From positions 45,012,001 through 45,076,000 of the forward strand of contig JAGIQG010000011.1 in the NCBI GenBank assembly GCA_024679065.1: DNA of 64,000 nucleotides, in the 5' to 3' direction. The DNA is from Sphyrna mokarran (lineage: Eukaryota). Both the position numbers and the translations under genes were made by a program. Numbering within the stretch: the stretch's first letter is position 1; every line of letters begins with the position of its first letter. A model generated the notes under the pieces. It had not been told where the DNA came from, did not search any database, and saw only the letters and a program-made list of their open reading frames with translations. Of this stretch, positions 4,456-52,780 are shown one piece after another.

Positions 4456-4745
4456 TACAGTGGCACAATGGTTAACACTGCTGCCTGATAGTGCCAGGAA
4501 CCTGGGCTCAATTCCCGGCTTGGGTCGCTGTCTGTACGGAGTCAGCACGTTCTCCCTGTGTCTGTGTGAATTTCCTCTCGATGTTCCAGTTCCCTCCCAC
4601 AGTCCCAAAGACTTTCTGGTTAGGTGCCTTGGTCATGCTAATTTCTCCCTCAGTGTACCTGAATTGGCAGAGTGTGGCGACTAGGGGATTTTCACACTAA
4701 CTTCATGTCAGCCTATTTGTGACACTAATAAATAAATTCTAAAGT
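4456..4745 (+). mobile_element. HE1-type tRNA-derived SINE
   Basis: A-box-like TGGCACAATGG, B-box-like GGCTCAATTCC, shared central body and AATAAATAAA tail. Related copies at 34465, 43900, 51705, 56378. Confidence 0.85.
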
Positions 4746-4974
4746 TTTATGCTTTACTAGATGCCCAGGCTAATGCTCTGGAGACAAGGGGCAGGACCTT
4801 CCAGCTCTTCATCTGTCAGGATCTTCTGGTCCCACTGACCTGCTGAGAGTTTCCCATCGGTGTGGGGAAGAATCAATGAGAAATCCCAGAAGATCCTTTC
4901 ACCAGTCAATGGTCATCTACCTCCCACTACTAAGAAAAATGCTGCAAGGTGGCCAGAGAATCCGGTTCATGATT

Positions 4975-6129: not shown

Positions 6130-9100
6130 TGTTGTTGTTTTTATGGCATCATCAAGAGATTTCAGTCTTTGTTAGGAACAAAAGACATTTAGTGATGAGA
6201 AACTTGTTACAAGAGGGTTACAGCTCTGGCTGCCATGAAGCAGAGCTCCAGTCCTTACATGCTGACAATTGGCCCCAGAGGTAAAATAGTTGAGAGAGGA
6301 CTCTCTCCCTCCAGTGTGATTACTTACTCTGGGTCCCATTGGTTTCTCAAGTTCTGCTGTACTGTCTTAAAAAGACAAATACCAGTCACACAACATCCCT
6401 TAACTTTGTGTTTTCAAAATCTACCTAAATTCTAAATAAACATTATACATAAGTTAGACACTTGTAAATTGATGTGGCAATTGTTCAAAGGAAGAATCTT
6501 CAGGCTTGCATTTATTATAACTCTTTCTCTATGCACATTTCCAAATTTAGTCTTGCATGGGATTCTTCCATACAGAGTTGCTGCTTTCTGAGTTACGTCC
6601 TAGACTGTGCATGACAAAGGACTACATTCTTCACTCTCCAATCCACTGATCCTTTTCTATATCAAGCACCTACCTCTACAATGCATTGCAGGTACCATCG
6701 TTATAATACAACATAGTTTTACATCTTGACAGTTCTTGCACTATATCAGTTTATCACTTGTGAAGGGAATGGTCACTGTACACTATTTCTAGTAAATAGT
6801 TCATGTGATAAAGTTTCTTCTCTTTCTAGCATTTCAATTTGGCATCTTTTCATCGACCCTGATACCATGTTAGTTACTGTGCATTTCTATTAGCATGACT
6901 ATTTCGGCAATTCTATTCTGGCACGTCATTTCAATTTCCATCTCTGCCTGAATTGTTGCTTTGTCTAGTTCTCTCCGACATAACCTCTTCAACTCGGTGG
7001 CTTCATTTTCTAATCTTCTCCTTCTGTCTTCTGTGTCAGTTAATTTATGCCTTGGACACGAGTGGTTCTTTACTCCATCATTCACTTCTAACAACATTTG
7101 ATAACAATCTCTCCCTTCTCATGCTTTGCATATTTTCAGATAACTGACATTTTCTTTTAGTAGTTGCAACTAACTATACTTTTATGTTCAATATTTCTTC
7201 CTTTTTTTTAAAAATTAGGCATTTATTTTGCCAACTTGTTCAACAGTTGTATTCTCTGTTTGGATTTGTCCATTGCTATGTCCTCCACAGCACCATCAAA
7301 TACCTGACAGTTTCTACCTGTCTGCAGAATTCCAATTTCTCTTGCTCATTTGTGTATTCCACACGACTGGTAGTTGGTCATTTAATTGGACCTCTGGAGA
7401 ATTCCCAATATTGTTCTGGTGAATGACAGCTGTGCTCTATTTCTACTTCAACAGTACAGTGATTCTTGCTGTAGATGATACAGGATGTCCTACATGAGCA
7501 CCATGGACCAAATCTTTGATGCATTTCACTCTGAGGCCAGCAGTTCTCTTACCGATCACGAAACCAATAATATCCATGAAATGGGATTTCCTTAGCTCTT
7601 CTCAAGTTCCATGAAATGACGTCTGTTGCCAAATTCCACTTATTGTCTCAACCCGTTTTACCTTATATTCATGGCTTCATGCTCTTACTCCAGTTCCTTC
7701 ATTACTTGCTAGTGAATCTTTCTTACTGAGCCTAATAGAATTCCTACTTTCACCTTTTTCATAGTGCCAGATTTTTTCTTAGCTTTGATATAGCTGAGCT
7801 GCTTCTCATTTATATTAGGGGTCATAAACTTTTAACTCATCTTCTATTTGCTGTAATTTTCAGTGAAGTTCATCCAACCTTTTTTTCTCCTTCACTTTTA
7901 ATACTTCTGGTTTCTCTTACTTTCTGACTGATTACAGCTTCATTGTTTGCATGTAGTAGTTTATTGCTAAAATGTTCATGCTTATTCCAGTACAAAAGGA
8001 TGGCATGCAACTCTTTTTAAGCTCTCCATTTAGTAATTTAGGGTCTTTTGTTGCTCTGCTTTTGGCTGTCTCCCTCTCCATGGTTTCTTAGCACCCCCCT
8101 CTAAGGGAACTTCTACTACCTACTGTGAATATGGCATTGCCTCTTGTTTGAGGCTTATTACCTCTTCTGAGCTCCAGTATTGCCTCTTTCTTGAGGTCTT
8201 AATTTTCTTCAAGGTCTTGCATTGCTTACAGACCCCCTTTTTCTTAAAAAAAAGAGGGGCCCTTTTTAGAGTTGCTCTCTGCTTAGCTCTTCACAGATTT
8301 TCCTGTCTCTTGTCCTTTGTTCCTTATTATGGTTGTTGCATTAAATCTTGTAAACTTTGAATGCATTACCTCTTTACATGCATTATTGCTTTAACTGTCA
8401 AAGTTTCTTTTAACTGCCACAGCTGCCATTCCTGTCTATGCTTTTCCTACACTTAAGGTTTTGATGAGAACCTATGTTTGGATCTTTTTGTTAGAAGTTT
8501 TAAAACCTTTTCAGCTAGTGCAAGTTTTTTTTATATCAATTTCTGCAGTTTTCCTCTCTTTTCCTGCCAGCTGCAGAATTTCTTTCCTGCTTGTAACATC
8601 ACATTTTTTGTTAATTTTACCACTGGCTCTAGTTGGAGTTTTTAAAAAAATTTTCAAGTGGTTAGCACTGCTGTCTCATAGCGCAGAACCTTGGGTGACT
8701 GTCTGGGTTTCCTCCAGGTGCTTCGATTTCCTCCCGTGATCCAAAGATGTGCAGATTAGATGGTTTAGCCATGTTAAAATTGCCTCGATATGTCCAAGGA
8801 TGTATAGATTGGGAATAAGCCATGATAAATGTGTGGGGTTATGGGGATAGGACAGAGGGGAAGGACTAGGTGGGTTGCTCTTTCAGAGAGTCAGTGCAGA
8901 CTCAATGGGCCAAATGGCCTCCTTTTTTCACTGTAGTGATTCTATGATTTATTTTCAAACAGTTAGAGATCTTCTCCTCTGTCAGAAACTTCCAACCCGC
9001 AGTCCTTCAATGCAGGGACTGGTACAGGGACACCCCACAGGCTCTACTCAGATCAGTGGCCCTCGTTTTAGCTTTTTCATTTCCTTGTGCTTTTGGGAGA

Positions 9101-24082: not shown

Positions 24083-24372
24083 CATAGAATCCCGACAGTG
24101 CAGAAAGAGGCCATTCAGTCAATCGAGTCTGCACCAACCACAATCCCACTCAGCCTAATTTCTGTAACTCCACATATTTACCCCGCTAACCCCTGACACT
24201 AGGGTCAATTCAGCTTGGCCAATCAATCTAACCCACACGTCATTGGTCGGAAACTGAAGCATCCGGAGGAAACCCACACAGACACATGGAGAACGTCCAA
24301 ATTTTACACAGACAGTCATTTGAGGCCAGAATCGAACCTGGGTCCATGGCGCTGTGAGGCAGCAGTGCTAGC
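24083..24372 (-). mobile_element. HE1-type SINE
   Basis: ATCGAACCTGGG (reverse B box), GCTGTGAGGCAGCAGTGCTA head, CATAGAATCCC..CAGTGCAGAAAGAGGCC tail. Confidence 0.85.
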
Positions 24373-24509
24373 CACCCCAAAGGAATTTAAAGCTTTAAGG
24401 GTCAACTTGTGTGCCAGTGATTTACATGTTAATATTGATGGGGAATACAATGTTTAGACCTTCAGTGCTTTCAAAAATCCAAGAATAAGATTAATTGAAT
24501 AAACCATAC

Positions 24510-33900: not shown

Positions 33901-35220
33901 TTTTTGTGACTTTGACTGTGGAATAGTTATTTAACATTTCTTTCATTTCCAGAATCCAATTATAATATCAGCTGTTCTTTCTCTAATGGACCTAAGTTTA
34001 CTTTCACATCTCTTTCCATTAACACTTATAGAAAGATTTATACCTACAAAAAAATTACAATTTGTTTATGTGTCTTCTGCTATTCTGCTATTTTCTCTTT
34101 CTTATCAATTTCTTAGTCCTCATTTGCTGAATTCTAAAATCCTCAGGTTTACTATTCTTTCTGGCAACATTACAAGCTTTTTCCTTAGATCTAATACTAT
34201 CATTAACTTATTTTGTAGCCATAGTTGGGCCACTTTTCTCATCAGGTTTTTATAATTTAAGGGAATATATGTTTGTTGTAAATTAAGTTTTAACTCTTTA
34301 AGACAGCTATTATTTGGCAACAGTCATGTTCTATAATGTAATTACCCAATACATCTCGGCCAACTTATCTCCTACTACCATTTTGCTTTGTTCAAGTTTG
34401 TTCAGTTTCTAGACTCTTAGTTTCACATTTAATTGAATGATTTTCCAATTAAATAGAAAATTCTAAAGTTATAAAGTTTATTTATTAGTCACAAGTAAGG
34501 CTTACATTAACACTGCAATGAAGTTACAGTGAAATTCCCCTAGTCACCACACTCCGGCGCCTATATGAGTCAATGCACCTAACCAGCACATCTTTCAGAA
34601 TGTGGGAGCACCCTCAGAAAACCTACACAGATACAGAGAGAATGTGCAAACTCCACACAGACAGTGATCCAAGCCAGGAATCGAACCCGGGTCCCTGATG
34701 CTGTGAGCTAGTACTGCTAATCACTGTGCCACCAGTCCACGCACTTCTACCAATTATGGTCACTTCTCTAGAAACCTTTACCAACAGTTTATTAAATAAG
34801 CCTGTCTTAGTGCACAATAGCCTGTTCCTTAGTTGGTTCCTCAACACACTGAGCTCGAAAATATCTTGAATACATTCCACGAACTCATCCTCCACATTAT
34901 TACTGGAAATTTTGTTTTCCCAGACAATTTGAAAATTAAAGTCTTCCATGATTCCTGCATTCCCTTATAACCTCTGCATCTAATTTCCTGATTTATTCTC
35001 TGGCCTATACTACAACTGTTACAACTCCCACCAATGCTTTCTGCCCCATGCTGTTTTGTTTTTAGCTCCTCATTTTCTGAGATAAGATCCTTTCTTTCTA
35101 CAGTTGTTACCTCATCCTTTATCATCAGAGTTATGCCTCTCTTATCCTTTTACCAACCTCTTCTAAAAATTAAGTATCACAGAATATTTAGTTCCCAACT
35201 TTGGTCACATTGCAAACATT
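33900..35220 (-). mobile_element. CR1 LINE endonuclease-region fragment interrupted by a SINE
   Basis: ORF 34623..34949 MEDFNFQIVWENKISSNNVEDEFVECIQD matches the CR1 MGDFN...EF.EC..D motif. Confidence 0.75.
34465..34735 (-). mobile_element. HE1-type SINE
   Basis: Reverse complement of the 4456-4745 family. GGAATCGAACCCGGG B box. Confidence 0.85.
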
Positions 35221-36430: not shown

Positions 36431-37897
36431 GGCTAGATTACTCCAAGCTTTTTGACAGTGATAACAGGTTCTGTGCCAGGCCTGTCAATGTATCTAGTAC
36501 CTCTGAGAGCATGCCTTTCAGCAGTCTTTTGTATGTTATGCATCAAGTCTTTCAACTTGATTTTCTGCAGCAGAGCTTGTATATGACCTCACCCTCTGGG
36601 CAGCTGTCACATGTGCTACCTTTTCTCTTTGCCCCAGCTGCAGCCCACAATGCTGAGCCCACTTCCATGTCATTCTATAAATTTTTTCCCAGTTCCAGTA
36701 CTAGAGCTATTGGCCACAAGTGTTAGTTTCAATGACATCGCTTTTATTTTAAATCATTCATCTGCTCTTGCCCGGGCCCTTAATGGTGAGGCTGTGGTCT
36801 AGTCAGGCACCAGGTCTTCGATATCTGGAAGCAAAAACAAAGGAGTCAAAATAAGGGAAACGTGGGAATAGGTGGAAAGAAAGAAGCCATGTTTATTAGG
36901 GCCAGGGAGAGAAGTTATAAGCATGCTGCTTTTCCCCTTTCTGAACCCTTTATTCCCCTCACCATCCCACATTAAACCTCCTCTTCAATCATGCATGATG
37001 CTTTCCCATTTTGAATATTCAAGTTACAATAATATTCAAATTACAATAATATTCAGATTACAATTATTTAGGCGCTAGCATCAGATGCTGCTCGAAAGGT
37101 ACTGGTAAAATGATGGTACCCACTGTTGATATCTTGTTACAAATACTATCCAATACAAGCGGCATGAGTTACGGATATTAAGAACAGCAATGATGTAATG
37201 CAACGTTAGTTTGTGTGCGTCCTTTAAGCGATCCCACCCAGGCCATTTAAAAAAACAAAGAGTATAAATTATACTTTGTCGGCATCATACAGTATTGTTA
37301 ATTTGGCAGGATAATATCTTATTGGTTGTTTATAACATTGTACAGATGATAACAGTGATTTTGATAACTACTTAGTCCTCATTAATATGTTCTGTACATT
37401 GCACTGTACGAATATAATAACAATAAAATATACTTGAGGAAGATTCAATACACGCAACCCAGATAAACTGTTTAAGATCTTTTCCATTCCATATAAGTGT
37501 TAAAAGACTTCTCCTGCCAGGGCGCATGATATTATTCAATATAATTAGTTCAGTGAATGGGTGTAATGGGATTGATTCTATTTTATCAGCAACCTCACAG
37601 GTGGAAAGATCAAAAGACTCCCGACCAACACAGTGGAATGGCTGAACAACATAGGTCTTCGTATTTGTCACAATATTTTAATGTCAAAAATCTTACAAGA
37701 ACACCAAGATACGAGTGGAATAATAGGTTAGACAAAAGAACAAGATTGAAGTCAATGAAAAAGACACCTGAGAATCATATATAGGATAAACCAGCTTACT
37801 GATTCACTAAAACCCCATTATGCACTCCTGTCCTGGCAATTTCACCCCAAAGTCCACTCACAGAAAACTCCCATTAGCGAAAAAAAAAAGCTCCAAC

Positions 37898-38000
37898 ACA
37901 AACAGAAAATGCTGAAAAACTCAGCAGACCTGACAACATCTGTGGAGAGAGAATAGAGCCAATGTTTCGAGTCTGGAGGATCTTTCAACACAGCTCTTCT
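37898..38000 (-). repeat. Half of palindromic Penelope-like-derived element
   Basis: AAACAGAAAATGCTGAAAAACTCAGCAGACCTGACAACATCTGTGGAGAGAG...TGTTTCGAG, same family as 48465-48790. Confidence 0.7.
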
Positions 38001-42200: not shown

Positions 42201-43899
42201 TGTTATTCAATTATTTAAAACTTTACTGAATTTTCTTTATTGCTATTAAAAAAAATATCTATTTTATCGTAGGATTACATATATACTCAAGGACAATTGC
42301 ATGATGCTATTTCAATCCCAAGTTAGGAACTCTGCATGAACTTGCAACCAAATCACAACTTGGTTATGGAAGCTAATGTCGTAGCTGTACTAGAATAACT
42401 TGGACAAGGGCACAGCTAGTTGTGGAGCACAAGTCAGACCTACTAAGATTTTCCAGCACTTTCTGTTTTTGTTTCCAATTCCAGCATCTGCAGTACTTTG
42501 CTTTTATCTTCAGTACTAGTGCTGGAATGTTGTCACCACAGAGGGATAACCTTGCCCCACACTATATGTTCAAGTGAATTCCTTTACCGATGCTAATCTT
42601 AAACTTCCCCCTGCCACCCGGGCAGTGACACCCTCTCACTGCCAGGATATCACTGGCAGGGTGGCATTGGCATGGTGGAGCCAGGGTACTGTCCAGCCAT
42701 ATACCTGACCACTCAGGAGTTTCAAAGGCCTCCAAACACCCTGGCATGGTCATAAAGTCTATCCAAAGGAAAAAAAAAACGGTGGCCACTAGAAGGTCCT
42801 CTTTGAGGACTGCTTGGAGGGTAATTCTTCAGTTGTATCAGCTTTTTCCATGACTAAAAACAACCTCCAGTACAGGCATATTGTTTGGGCATAAGAAGGT
42901 GAAAAAGATCCATTATATTTAAAAAAACAGTCAGATTGCAGACCTAGTCTTTCTAGGAACGATATCAGATCAAAGAGAAAGCCTGTTTAAAAACCCGCTG
43001 CTAGAAACTGCAACAGTTCAACAAAGGAATCACTTCAGGCTTAATGGTGCATGAACCGATTGCATCAACAATGAACTGTTTGATCTGTCCTGGAGCTGTC
43101 AGTCAGAAAAGCTTTTAGCAACTTAGGGAACATGAGTTTCTTGTATAAACAAACCTCTTTTTGATCTGCTCTGGAGCTGTCAATCAATCCAAGATTTCTC
43201 AGAATAGCTGGAGCTCATTCAAGAAAGGGGGATCTACCTAGTGAAATTCAAATCTCCTATCAATCCAAGTGCATCAAAGAGCTATCAGAGCACCTCGGGT
43301 TTATGAGAGAAAGCAAGGGATATCTGCCTAGGGAAACTGACATTTCCTGTCAATTAAAATACTTCAAAGAAAGTACTTCTGAGAACACCTGGTGTTTTGG
43401 AAATCATCCAAGGGCAATCCCTACAATAGAATGGAGTGCTGCTGTGATTTTGAGGGATTCCAGATGTTCAGCAGTATGGACTTTAAAGTGACTAGGGCAC
43501 TTCAAAGTTTTACAGCATAGACAACAATAAAGTTTAACCAGAAAGTTGCCTAAAATCACAATCTTGAGAGTGATTTCCATGTTTCCCAGTGCAGGAAGAA
43601 AAAGCCCAGCTATGAATTCTCTGTCCCAGAGGAGAGCCCCAAGATCAATCTCTTTCCCCCAGCCTGTGCCCTCTCCCTCACCCCAAATGCCAAGTCCCTT
43701 GGGGACCCCTCTTTCTGCAGCGGCAGAGTAGCCAATGAGCATAGTTGGAGGCATCATTTACCTCCTTATCCTCCCATGGCACCTGGTATTTGCTTTCAGG
43801 ACCAGGAGAGAGTAGCGCCCACTGGACTCTAGCTTGTGGGGGTGTGTGGCAAAGCATATCGAGAAGCCAGAGCATCCTGCCTCACATTGGGCATTTAAA

Positions 43900-44092
43900 G
43901 CAGTAGTGATCTGGGTGTTCTGGTTTCCACCCACAGTGTGAAAGATGTGCTGGTTAGGTGCATTGGCCATACTAAATTCTCCCTCAGTGTAATCAGTCAG
44001 ATGCTAGAGTGTGGCAACTGGGGAATTTTCACAGTAACTTCAGTGCAATGTTACTATAAGCCAACTTGTGACAGTAATAATTAAACTTTAAA
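43900..44092 (+). mobile_element. HE1-type SINE 3' part
   Basis: GTGCTGGTTAGGTGCATTGGCCATACTAAATTCTCCCTCAGTG...ACTTTAAA. Confidence 0.8.
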
Positions 44093-44129
44093 CATTAATC
44101 AGAATCTAGAAAGCTCTGAGCGGGAACCT

Positions 44130-45252: not shown

Positions 45253-45315
45253 CTGATGAAAGGTCATCAATCTGAAACATCAACTCTGTTTCTTCTCCAC
45301 AGTTGCTGCCTGGCC
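45253..45315 (+). ncRNA. Degenerate minimal hammerhead-ribozyme-like motif of a Penelope-like element end
   Basis: CTGATGA (45253-45259), a decayed stem II and GAAAC (45274-45278), followed by the family arm. Confidence 0.45.
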
Positions 45316-45415
45316 ATCATCTTCATTGTTTACATCCGTTCTTTTTAGAAAGGTTTGGCTTTTATTTTGGAAAGCACACATTGATTAAAGAGCATGAACT
45401 GGATTTTATGTAGGC

Positions 45416-45567
45416 ATGCATTGGACTGGGGTAAACACACTAAGAAGTCTGACAATACCATGTTTAAGTCCAACTGATTTATTTGATAGTAAACTTTGAT
45501 AGTAAGTGAGTTTACTATCAAATAAATTGGTTGGACTTAAACCTGGTGTTGTCAGGCTTCTTACTCT
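45416..45567. mobile_element. Fold-back short element with 55-bp inverted arms and 12-bp TSD
   Basis: Arms 45441-45495 and 45509-45563. TTTTATGTAGGC duplicated at 45404-45415 and 45568-45579. Confidence 0.85.
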
Positions 45568-46139
45568 TTTTATGTAGGCGACAAGGGTTTTGCCACCAGG
45601 GATGAAAGCTGGTGGTGACTCCAAATTTGTGCACAGTAGGTAAGGGGCCATATTTTTCCAGCAGTAGCCACTGGCCATTAGGGATGGTAAAGGTGGTTGT
45701 TGGGGCTGTGTCTGGAGCACAGTACAGTAAGTACATTCACTAGATATGAAACATGTCCTTTACACACTGGAAAAAGCATAGCAGTTGCCTCTGAAAAAAA
45801 ACTGGATCACAAACTCAACATACTGTAATTTTCAATGCTTAAAGAAGCACTCAAGAAAGTCTTTTAAATCAAAATTTCTAAAAAAAATGCAATGTTTCCA
45901 GGAGTAAAAAAAGAAAATTGATTGTTCCAGACTCATATCCCACTTGGAAGGTTTTCATTATGGACCTTCAGGTGAAGAAGGAATAGTATATGCCATTAGA
46001 AATGAAGGTGAAGGACATTATGGGACCTAGGTTTACTTCTTAATCCTGAGTCGAGCTCTTTTTTCACATTTACTCAATTACTTAGATGATTACTTTCACT
46101 TCAGAATACTAATCTCCTCCAAGCATAATTTTTGATCTT

Positions 46140-46560
46140 AATGAATTGAATGAGGGACTTCAGTTATCTGGAGAACAGAGAAGCCAGGATTGTTGTCCAT
46201 AATGCTGAGAATGTTAAAAGGCATTTTAACACAGGTGTTTAAAATTGAGGGGTTTTGATAAAGTAAATGAAAAGAAATTGTTGCCATTGGCAGGAAGGCC
46301 TACAACCACAGGACCAAATTTAAAATCATTTGCACAAGACCCAGAGATTGGGAGGAGTTTTGTTTAAACACAGGGAGGTATTCTGATCTGGAATGTATTG
46401 AAAGAGCAGTGGAAGCAGATTCAATAGTAACTTTGAAAAGGAAAACCGATATATACATGAAAAAGGAACAATTTGAGGAAACAGTCAGACTAATTGGATT
46501 GCTCTTTCCTAGCACAGGCAAGATAGGCTAAATGGCCTCCTGTGTGCTGTGATTGTATAA
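46140..46560 (+). mobile_element. Old CR1 LINE 3' end
   Basis: Decayed LEKLGLFS/RGHKFK-like segments and GGCTAAATGGCCTCCT tail. Confidence 0.7.
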
Positions 46561-47685
46561 ATAAGAGTGAAGCTAATTGGTGAGTCTTCAATAAACATCT
46601 CCGTCAAATGCAGTGAATGCTTGCTCACATGGACATATGTAGAAATTACAGCACACTTAACAGGCGATTCAGCCCAACCTGGCCATGCAGTTATTTATCC
46701 AGTAGTTCTTTCAGTTAATTCCACTTCACAGGGCACAGGAATACATTTAAGATTATAAACAACCAAGGAAGTCCCAAACTACAGGAAGGATGACTGCCTA
46801 GGGGCACGCCACAGCAATAATAACAACATTCAAACACACGCAGTTGGATCATGGCAATCGTTTCCCTCCTTTTAGCCTTAACAGGAAGGTGGTTCAACAC
46901 CATTTTATTTTAATGTAAAGGATATTTAATAAATGTACAAGAGAGTGATTTTATTCCATAAAAGACAAAAGAGAGAGTAAAAAGGGAAAGTATTCTTGTC
47001 ACTGAGAATGAATAGTTTGACATATTTACAGAGTATGACCATATTCTGTAAATCAAGTTATTCTTCATTAAACCTCAGCAAAAATAATCCAACTTTACTG
47101 CAAAATGTTTTCACAATGTTACGTAACATTTTTTGCTAGAATCAATTCCACTCACAAGCTGCAGACTTCACTTGTTAATATGCATTTTTTCAAATCCTTC
47201 TTCATTTCCTCAGTTATTCAATTATGCATCAAGTTAAATAGACTAAAGCAAATTTAATATTCAGACAAATTTAGTTTACAATTAAAACAGAGGTATAACA
47301 GTTTACAATGTGTAACATTCTTTTATGTTACATATTTTTGTTTTTTTAAAACATTGTGATTTCTTTTCAACACAGCTAAAATTAGATCAGGTGTTGTAGG
47401 TTAAAAAAAGAGATTAGGAAATAAAGAAGAAAAATTGAACAAATATTCTTCTATGTCTTTTAAAAAAAAGAGCCTGTTGCAGATATTCATTTATAAATGA
47501 TATTTTTGCTCCTTATCTATTATTTTGGGCCTTAACACTCCTGCTAAACAATTCTACAGAGATAAACATCAGAAGCCTTCAACCTTGCCTGCGGCTTGGA
47601 TTCTCCAATCCTGCTCCAGTGAATGGAGTTTTGGCTAAGCGCCAAATTCTTTGTTCACAATAGCAGCAATGGCAGGGTGAATGAG

Positions 47686-47861
47686 GTAGAGATGCCGGCG
47701 TTGGACTGGGATAAACACAGTAAGAAGTCTGACAACACCAGGTTTAAGTCCAACTGATTTATTTGGTAGTAAACCTGACGAAGAGCACAGCCTCAAAAGC
47801 TTGTGAGTTTACTATCAAATAACTCAGTTGGACTTAAACCTGGTGTTGTCAGATTTCTTAC
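47686..47861. mobile_element. Fold-back short element with hammerhead-like loop, nested in a MITE (47593-47888)
   Basis: Same arms as 45416-45567. Loop CTGACGA-AGAGCACAGCCTC-AAAAGCTT. TSD AGGGTGAATGAG / AGGATGAATGAG. Confidence 0.85.
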
Positions 47862-48464
47862 AGGATGAATGAGATCAGAGAATCCCGCAAAAGATTCCAT
47901 GTGTAACTTAAAGTGTTAATAATAATCACGTGTTTAAAAATCACACAAGCTGTTATGAAAAATAAAGGTCTTCTAAGACCCTTCACAGATAGGCACTAAG
48001 GCCATTAGTCTGGGCAAAATTCATTAAATCAGATATCTGTAACTAGAAAAAGGGAATAATCTACAGATGCAGGAACATGTTGGACTATGATGAAAACAAT
48101 CATACTGATTTGATACTATAATAAAGCAAGCATAAAGTGATAATGATTGGTATATGCTAATTACTTGTAATTGAGTTTGAAAACTAATTGTTTATGTATC
48201 TCGGAAATAGATACTCTGGCTAGCTACAGAATGTGAGCTGTAGCTTTCCAGCATCCTTGCTATAGTTTGCAATTAAAACAGCTGTTTAAAAGAACTCCGT
48301 GACTTGCTCTGGTTACTTGATGGGTCAAGTTGTGAATTAAAAGGCTGACATCAAAGCCTGCAACATCATTTGTTCCTAACTTGGTTCCACTCCTTTGGAC
48401 CAACATAGCAGACAATGCAGAGCTGCATAAACCAAGAAAAATCACTAAGATAAAAGCTAATTAT

Positions 48465-48790
48465 TGTGGATGCTGAAATCTGGAACAAAAACAGAAAATG
48501 CTGAAAAATCTTAACAGGTCTGACAATATCTGTGGAGAGGAAACAGAGCTAATGGGTGGGATTTTACGGTCTTGCTCGAGTGAGACCAGAAATTTCTACC
48601 TGAGATCAACCAACATTTTTGTTTCCTGTCCCTCCCCACTCCCATTTCATGGCAGGTGAGGCAACAGACTTCTGGTGAACATTTCAAATCTGATGGTTAA
48701 GAGTCACCCCGACTTGAAACATTAGTACTGTTCTCTCTTCACAGATGCTGTCAGAACTGATGAGATTTTAGAGCATTTTCTGATTTTGTA
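48465..48790. repeat. Palindromic Penelope-like-derived element with internal MITE (48554-48677)
   Basis: Arms 48486-48553 and 48716-48789 are imperfectly reverse-complementary. The insert starts GGGTGGGATTTTAC. Confidence 0.75.
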
Positions 48791-50002
48791 CAACAAAAAT
48801 CACTACCAGCTGAACAGTTCACTAGCCAGTAACAGCTCTGTACTGCTCTAAATGACACAATATTATGTACATGTTAACATCCAGGTTTTAGATGACAATG
48901 TAAACAACATAAGTCAAAACATAGCCCTCATTAAAATACATTGCAATTATTAAAATCTGTTCTATTGAAGATGATAGTGTTGATTCATTCAAATGCAAAT
49001 TAAATACATTTCTTTTAGAAAATAATATTTTGGCAGAGAGTATTTGAGTAATTTGAAACACGACATGTGGTTAAATGTCGGATCCTTTGGAGTAACAGGT
49101 GGTTCCTACAGTTCCCCATCTGTAGGAGCATTCCTCACCTCAAGTCTTGGTTTCTTATAGATTAATGAATAGAAATTGACTTCATAAATTGATTATTATC
49201 CATATCACGCAATTCCCAAAATGGAGGGCAGCAAACTGGAAGGAGAGGAGCTGGGTTTTATTTCATTTAAGAATTTCTATGTTTCAATGAAATCTACTTC
49301 TCACTCCCAGAATCCTTTAAATATTGCTGTTTAATAGTTTGAATCATTATTATTACATTTATTATGCTGACCGACTATATGGCTTTCGACTGGGAACTGA
49401 ATTACATCCGAATACCTACAATTAATTCCACTTTGTAACCCTACTTTATCTGAAAACTGCAGTCGATTCTGATGCTCCATGTGAAACGCCAAAGGAGATC
49501 AACTAATGATATTAATTTAATATATTTAACTATGATGCTGATCTAATCTTTAGCTGTGGATCACAAAATCGTTCATCCATAACAAGAAGCAATTTTTGAC
49601 TGTCAGAGCTTTTTGACTGATCAGTTTAAGGGATAAATTTGTTCGTTTAAGAACTTCCCCTTTATTCCAGATGATTTAAATCAAATGTTTAATTCTGTAA
49701 CTGGGTACCTTAACAATTATGTTACAATGAGGAGCAAATCCCTTGGTGTGTTTATTTGGCGGTCTGTGCCTGGGATTAGTTAATGGTATGCTTTCAGACT
49801 TTGATAATGGGTAGCAGTCAAAATGAAATCTTTTTCCAGTGGGATTAATTGTATGACAAATGTGTAAAAATGATATTTCAGGAGCATGTTTGTAGACTGA
49901 GAGAAAAAAAAGTGGAAGGTAAGCACCCTGGGATGCACCAGGAAAGGTACCAACATGTTCCCTCCCCTCACCTGACTATACCCGAAAGAGAGAACAAATA
50001 TT

Positions 50003-51704: not shown

Positions 51705-51942
51705 TTAATTTATTTATTAGTGTCACAGAAGGTTTACATTAACATTGCAATGAAGTTACTGTGAAAATCATCTAGTCCCCACACTCCGGTGCTTGTGGGA
51801 GGAAATTGGAGCAGCTAGAGGAAATCCAGATAGACATGGGGAAAATGTGCAAATGCTGAACAGAGAGTGACCCAAGCTGGGAATCGAACCCAGGACACTG
51901 ACATTGTGAGGCAGCAGTGCTAACCACTGTACCACCATGCGG
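51705..51942 (-). mobile_element. HE1-type SINE inside an old minus-strand CR1 fragment (~51425-52340)
   Basis: GGGAATCGAACCCAGG B box and GGCAGCAGTGCTAACCACTG head. Confidence 0.85.
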
Positions 51943-52470: not shown

Positions 52471-52780
52471 ACAGCTCAGTGACTATCGCTGTGCTGTGCA
52501 GATACATGGGTTTGGGCCTGTGTCTGTGGGAGTTTGCGCATTCTCCCTATGCTTTCGTGAGTTTTCTCCGGGTGCTCCAGTTTCCTCCCACATCCCAAAG
52601 GTGTGCTCTTAGGCTAACTGGCAAAACAAATTCTCCCTAAATTGTCTCAAATTTGGTTTTTAATCCATAGATCTATAAACATAGACAGGGATCGCAGGTA
52701 GAGGTGGGAACATCAGGGTGGCGGCACGGGCTCGTTGGGCCGAAGGGCCTGTTTCCCATGCTGTTTTGTCCTTTGTTCTA
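52471..52780 (+). mobile_element. 5'-truncated copy of the chimeric CR1 3' UTR
   Basis: Closely similar to 57973-58275. Confidence 0.85.

Follow-up and report, generated by a model that had tools for sequence, protein, structure and literature searches.

Hairpin insertions in a hammerhead shark genome as probable stubs of a Penelope-like retrotransposon

The hairpins of the window and their parent element

The window, a stretch of 64,000 nucleotides from Sphyrna mokarran, contains two small fold-back sequences that are similar to each other (E about 1e-38), and the question they raise is whether such hairpins are a mobile family in their own right or remains of a larger element. A preliminary description of the same DNA had favoured a family, and we confirmed both copies, with their arms, target-site duplications (TSDs) and a hammerhead-like loop, where that description had placed them. 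Positions within the repeat are given relative to the predicted hammerhead cut, +1 being the first base 3' of GAAAGCTT; in this numbering the repeat (pLTR) ends at +59 and the tail covers +60 to +93.

Copy 1 lies between two identical 12-bp TSDs (12/12), TTTTATGTAGGC at 45404..45415 and again at 45568..45579, and six of the last eight nucleotides of the left one agree with the end of the parent's tail. Between them, we identified an inverted tail (45416..45439, minus strand), which has a 4-nt internal deletion when compared with the family majority sequence, an inverted arm corresponding to pLTR +59 to +4 (45440..45495, minus strand), a 10-nt junction filler equal to 45483-45492 (45496..45505, plus strand; defined by the sequence and the mapped arm ends), and a forward arm from pLTR +1 to +59 plus 3 nt (45506..45567, plus strand; 57/60 to the majority sequence). 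The inverted arms (I3), as extended, measure 64 nt at 88%. The forward arm begins exactly at the predicted cut site (+1) and is without the hammerhead core. Copy 1 had been described as having lost its loop while keeping a clean TSD; the TSD is clean, but the core was more likely never present, because the arms end at +4 and +1 with a 10-nt filler taken from the copy's own left arm. Its removal by a deletion after insertion is a possible alternative.

Copy 2 is bounded by 12-bp TSDs that match at 11 of 12 positions, AGGGTGAATGAG (47674..47685) and AGGATGAATGAG (47862..47873). It is composed of a 34-nt inverted tail (47686..47719, minus strand), whose counterpart in a full-length element is located directly before the likely start codon, an inverted arm from pLTR +59 to +5 (47720..47774, minus strand) and a forward arm from pLTR -30 to +59 (47773..47861, plus strand; 83/89 to the majority sequence), the two arms being joined via a 2-nt microhomology (47773-47774). 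The inverted arms (I4) measure 55 nt at 95%. The short leader that had been noticed in both copies is present, but it exceeds the stated length, reaching 34 nt in copy 2, and corresponds to the tail of a Penelope-like element (PLE). Generic hairpin (microRNA) models matched in an Rfam scan, all below their gathering scores; these matches reflect the hairpin shape, and caution is needed, as such stubs resemble MITEs or microRNA hairpins.

A long and abundant PLE is very probably the source of both hairpins, which are stubs of it: the arms correspond to its 3' end (pLTR) and the leader to the known one-sided tail of 30-40 nt. When the 2.77-Gb genome was searched with the DNA of copy 2, 1,634 first-look candidates were returned, 40 of which were scored, while exact searches with a 32-mer from the arm and with a 37-mer that runs across the tail gave 2,817 and 1,765 genome matches, respectively (0 for each reversed control). 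Upstream of the forward arm we observed sequence coding for an RT thumb, a cysteine linker and a putative GIY-YIG-type domain, and, conversely, the arm sequence was found downstream of the RT stretch in 28 of 30 loci, at 78-94% to copy 2. The link with Penelope elements put forward in the preliminary description is upheld, the same 3' end being attached to a frame with RT and a putative GIY-YIG-type domain. One locus, L092, is a full-length pLTR-ORF-pLTR copy with direct repeats (4682-4820 and 7673-7811) that are 93% alike, and its tail continues into the start of the frame. Another, L091, has an open frame of 773 aa that matches RVT_1 (E 2.2e-9); a PDB sequence search with this frame gave a single chance match (E 0.6). 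An RT-bearing partner with the same 3' end, of the kind that the preliminary description had proposed to look for, was found, but no unbroken end-to-end frame was present among the copies examined.

The C-terminal part of the PLE scores 0.97 to atlas clusters, of whose members 31-34% carry GIY-YIG, and the motif VYLI..C/WYVGET is visible in the frame P0002; a Pfam hmmscan of the C-terminal 349 aa matched no family, GIY-YIG included, at E<=1. A C-x4-C-x2-C linker is present in the frames of P0002, L091 and L092. In the accessible text of PMC8557442, a CX2-5CxxC linker between RT and endonuclease is assigned to the Neptune clade and is common to Nematis too, so that the cysteine linker points to a Neptune-clade parent family, as far as the predicted protein can tell.

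Related sequences were observed beside this family. The full-length copy (L092 4682-7811) and the loci L061-L090 belong to sister subfamilies; their hammerhead stems differ, stem II being capped for instance by a GAAA tetraloop, their 3' end is 78-94% alike to copy 2, and dozens of stem II variants coexist in the one genome. Two loci located 24 kb apart on one contig (L043 and L044) are 99.5% identical over 3 kb and represent a local duplication with one insertion. Assembled RNA contigs from four other samples that match L092:4600-5400 cease to match at 4823-4830, the tail end, which suggests that the tail boundary is the same in these relatives; the RNA runs, with shares of 0.04-0.22, consist of contigs only and are uninformative on starts, strand and expression.

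The window contains further repeats. A third head-to-head insertion, of another and older family, occupies 48433-48805, with arms at 48485-48554 and 48720-48789 (81%), some 38 additional nt confined to the left side and a 15-bp TSD with one mismatch (48433-48447 and 48791-48805); pieces related to it lie at 37887-37976, 42433-42510 and 45269-45315, and its family is probably a second Penelope-like one. Another hammerhead-like core (CTGATGA ... GAAACATC; 45253-45281, plus strand) lies 120 bp to the left of copy 1, where it opens a piece of this second family. We also noticed a 300-bp repeat pair unrelated to the hairpins (52471-52779 and 57973-58275, 91% identity) and other dispersed repeats at 4460-4743, 24249-24375, 34464-34734, 43910-44097, 51707-51940 and 56380-56525.

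Layout, target-site duplications and junctions across the family

Elements were sampled from the pattern matches on contig C1 in genome order, so that the junction was not a selection criterion. The first 100 places of the 32-mer supplied 30 loci and 60 stretches, and the first 100 places of the 37-mer as many again, places already included and the last few being skipped. The sample amounts to 168 elements of one contig, chosen for an exact 32- or 37-mer. An inverted partner was mapped in 88 of these, and the pair counts below omit the other 80, which have a single arm or a partner that is too short, too long or too diverged. The pairs combine one tailed and one tail-less arm in 83 of 88 cases; five have no long tail, and none has two. 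In the first sample set, 59 of 88 copies were two-armed and spanned 89-1,126 bp in a size series without gaps.

TSDs were detected in 61 of 83 copies, in comparison with 1 of 415 mismatched flank pairs, which is far above chance for the family. Their length, which the preliminary description had proposed to tabulate, ranges from 9 to 19 nt and is 11-14 nt in 51 of the 61. Since most TSDs fall within these 11-14 nt and the mean reading for simulated TSDs of 12 nt is 12.7, the staggered cut is put at about 12 nt. At the two TSD ends, target and element share 1.75 and 2.69 bases, where 0.85 and 1.06 are obtained when insertion is simulated with no pairing. The small size and the long inverted repeats are those of a MITE of a DNA transposon, an origin that is barely conceivable here, given that the TSDs have no fixed short length, the ends are asymmetric with a tail on one side, and the arms derive from the 3' terminus of an RT element; target-primed insertion, as formerly suggested, is retained.

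The 88 pairs fall into 85 junction classes, and comprise 29 microhomology junctions, 9 blunt ones and 50 with filler bases. Each of the two window junctions is unique in the 2.77 Gb when sought with exact 29-30-nt patterns, which a few dozen diverged copies could escape. These observations bear on the idea that the hairpins are a discrete, non-autonomous, ribozyme-bearing family of 150-175 nt that is itself transcribed and re-inserted. Copies do number in the thousands, the outer ends are constant in the best 30 matches to copy 2, and among the 88 junctions one class recurs three times and another twice. However, the centre is different in every one of those 30 copies, the three recurring junctions differ in their stem II variant and have a 3-nt microhomology, sizes are continuous, and kilobase-long RT-bearing copies show the same layout, with an inverted arm and tail on one side only in 11 of 30 loci. 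A self-copying hairpin family is accordingly very improbable, and the corresponding claim is abandoned. The 'loop' is the piece of pLTR reached by one arm but not by the other, and not a part of an element, and the stubs represent the inverted copy with a one-sided tail that is described for PLEs (PMC8557442, PMC3846280 and PMC8969392, in their accessible parts).

The hammerhead motif and the ends of the arms

In copy 2 the loop has the sequence CTGACGA-A-GAG-cacagc-CTC-AAAA-GCTT (47775-47802, within a damaged minimal type I hammerhead at 47775..47808, plus strand). On the plus strand it includes CUGACGA (47775-47781), an extra A (47782), stem II (47783-47785/47792-47794), G12 changed to A (47795), the palindrome AAGCTT (47797-47802) and the predicted cut between 47802 and 47803. 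The arm stops at -30, leaving stem I with just 2 nt of its 5' strand, and this part of the copy is folded into the long hairpin. The ribozyme belongs to the parent RNA and is predicted to be dead in copy 2 and absent in copy 1.

For the family as a whole, 180 cores were extracted by flanking anchors from all loci, and 175 of them could be parsed. Fully intact cores are 55 of the 175, and the departures are mostly CpG decay: G12 is A in 30 of the 145 cores where C precedes and in none of the 29 where T precedes, as had been suspected for the GAAA of copy 2. The extra base after A9 is A in 172 cores, and H17, which directly precedes the cut, is G in one of the 175 and U, A or C in the other 174. 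Stem II occurs as GAG/CTC, GGC/GCC, GAC/GTC and GGG/CCC, and stem I as CAC/GTG, CGC/GCG and TGC/GCA. In 68 chosen ungapped sequences, 89.5% of the cells of stems I and II are paired, against 8-42% in slid controls, and cells changed on both sides number 75, against 34.9 when shuffled (0 of 500 shuffles; the sequences are related, so that this gives no probability). Monomer folding of three cores gave uninformative z-scores of -1.3 to 0.2, and a search with Rfam hammerhead models, which had been proposed as a check, yielded no match at E<=10. The minimal type I hammerhead with a palindromic stem III that was first reported from copy 2 is nevertheless genuine at the family level, judging from the base pattern (CUGANGA and GAAA-x-UH); given the compensatory changes and the kept core, the motif is under selection in the source elements.

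The two arms of a copy resemble each other in this region. In 26 of 30 copies the stem II sequences of the two arms are no more than 2 nt apart, in comparison with 8% of random pairs, and in only one do they differ by at least 4, owing to a length difference; likewise, the arm ends lie within 15 nt of each other in 43 of 88 pairs, against 18 when shuffled. We infer that both cDNAs were copied from one RNA, while post-insertion loss of palindrome centres or gene conversion between the arms could also produce correlated ends and common variants. A shared variant and correlated ends are equally what is expected if a single priming was followed by the cDNA folding back and priming itself, which was proposed for rotifer PLE palindromes and is favoured in the accessible part of PMC3846280. 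For the shark stubs we consider this improbable. Among the 81 unequal pairs, the tail-less arm extends farther in 49, in which case the tailed arm would be the copy and yet the tail is absent from that cDNA, and in the other 32 copying would have to halt at +59 without a signal. That either arm can be the longer one argues against simple fold-back copying, and filler bases are present in 50 of 88 junctions. Priming from both sides of the cut is, on balance, the probable course.

When stem II variants are allowed, 61 of 255 arm 5' ends fall in -38..-27, that is, 27-38 nt upstream of the cut. Ends occur there at 0.033 per nt, in comparison with 0.005-0.009 on the downstream side and about 0.01 on the upstream side, and 1,769 simulated uniform truncations of real arms gave a flat distribution without a pile. 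This barrier is present in tailed, tail-less and single-armed copies, it holds the farther end of the pair in 26 of 88 cases (-38..-32), and the forward arm of copy 2 (-30) is one of its ends. A literature search, mostly outside subscription journals, returned no report of such a pile-up of arm ends, although the supplements of the papers may hold similar maps. A pile at -9..+9 in the first junction map, which used one reference, shrank once stem II variants were allowed and was regarded as largely an alignment artefact, and an intron ending at the barrier was discarded, as the arms stopping there share no upstream sequence by eye.

We lean slightly towards reading the barrier as the transcription start of the element RNA. 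The site reads TCATTC (A at -34), which we take to fit the initiator consensus, and a TATA-like 8-mer located 30 nt upstream of it is poorly kept, beginning with TATA in only 21 of 52 long arms and reading TATGTGTG in 15; the initiator-like motif overlaps stem I of the hammerhead, and its conservation is therefore confounded as evidence for a start. With microhomology junctions removed, a G precedes the ends at -36..-30 in 15 of 35 cases, against 18 of 92 elsewhere (p 0.008), and an extra G ahead of the ends is the trace that a cap might leave, as for L1. Alternatively, the barrier may be structural, with the enzyme stopping or the cDNA folding back after stem I has been copied, a reading that we regard as unlikely but deserving weight. 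Its position matches that of the 5' strand of stem I (-34..-29), TCA/TGA microhomology serves for some of the junctions there (-36/-27), and the TATA-like box is variable. Nonetheless, the excess of G is expected of a cap and not of a stem, stem I amounts to 6 bp with G-U pairs that would be mismatched in the cDNA, and the usual place for a polymerase to stall is the entry to a stem, not its exit.

The remaining candidate for a preferred end is the cut site itself. Stubs derived from hammerhead-cut RNA would have arm ends that mark the cut and hence cleavage in vivo, and this seems quite improbable. The forward arm of copy 1 does begin at +1, the core is under selection in the parent, and there is a weak excess at +1..+7, with 15 ends against 32 in the 28 flanking nt (p 0.037, for a range picked post hoc). 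Yet ends exactly at +1 are just 3 of 255, those in -3..+5 are 13 where 11.2 are expected, and 153 of 255 arms include the core in full.

A possible route of insertion and known systems

The stubs are in all likelihood independent and extremely 5'-truncated PLE insertions, in which two end repeats stand head to head, probably after priming on both sides of the cut and copying of one RNA. According to this model, the GIY-YIG domain would cut the two strands about 12 nt apart; of the target 3' ends, one would prime at the end of the pLTR (+59 to +62) and the other at the end of the tail (about +94 to +100, centred at about +97), both aided by 1-3 nt of target pairing, and both cDNAs would extend toward the 5' end of the RNA. 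If the 5' pLTR is where priming takes place, and the transcript begins at the initiator-like TCATTC (A at -34), the cDNAs would run off after about 95 and 130 nt, some of them stopping earlier, and the two cDNA ends would be trimmed and then joined by microhomology or filler synthesis. The shared ribozyme variant and the pile-up of ends fit two primings on one RNA that runs off its start, the template being mostly uncut by its own hammerhead. The resulting stubs are predicted to be inert, with no promoter upstream of the start and a long hairpin that either traps or lacks the ribozyme.

Whether the stubs constitute a genome-wide fossil read-out of this process (one RNA, two primings 35-40 nt apart, run-off at a capped 5' end and a selected ribozyme mostly left uncut) is a proposal that we make tentatively, at a little under even confidence. 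If true, it would account in one step for the tail, the inverted pLTR and the abundance of tiny hairpins. As an element, the stub is the ordinary and known PLE layout at its smallest size, and its value lies in the data: thousands of stubs provide testable numbers, namely a start at about -34, two priming sites and a stagger of about 12 nt, and they also suggest one RNA variant for both arms and few cut templates. These numbers bear on the origin of PLE inverted repeats and tails, on the RNA start and on cleavage in vivo, subjects treated in the accessible parts of PMC8557442, PMC11167929 and PMC4209133.

The closest counterparts are the units of endonuclease-bearing PLEs, as described in the available text of PMC8557442, for Pen2a_Av of Adineta vaga (PMC3846280) and for Penelope of D. 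virilis (PMC2377424). As in the shark, these have a pLTR with an adjacent inverted, 5'-truncated copy, a 30-40-bp tail at one end only, and a pLTR that overlaps the start of the ORF and holds a hammerhead and a putative TATA box and initiator. The differences are that the arms here are too short for any coding sequence, that the TSDs are mostly 11-14 bp, in comparison with 8-10 bp in rotifer PLEs (PMC3846280), and that the arm ends pile at one site, of which we found no report in those parts of the sources.

The model also resembles what is described in the accessible text of PMC11167929 for PAc (Poseidon of Anolis carolinensis), which in vitro cuts and extends both target strands, uses two internal start sites that bound the tail, does not require hammerhead cleavage and has uncut RNA as its main template. 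Two start sites bounding the tail, cutting and extension of both strands and a mostly uncut template are common to the two systems, all being deduced here from the insertions. PAc belongs to the Penelope/Poseidon clade, whereas the shark family has a Neptune-type cysteine linker; its starts lie 111-118 nt into the ORF, whereas the shark tail finishes near the likely start codon; and its priming is reported to occur without homology, in contrast to the slight target pairing observed here.

The hammerhead itself agrees with the minimal ones of metazoan PLEs, as far as these are presented in PMC4209133, in having no stem III in the monomer, a palindromic 15.2-16.2, an extra base between 9 and 10.1, a G10.1-C11.1 pair and high variation within one genome; it differs in that stem II is 3-5 bp long and that copy 2 is without G12. 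According to the same text, the minimal PLE hammerhead cleaves poorly in vitro. Finally, the stubs share with non-LTR retrozymes (bioRxiv 10.64898/2026.07.22.740005, as far as its text was available) a small size, the absence of coding sequence, a derivation from the pLTR and a type I hammerhead; retrozymes, however, are head-to-tail tandem units that amplify as such, whereas the stubs are head-to-head, one-off products.
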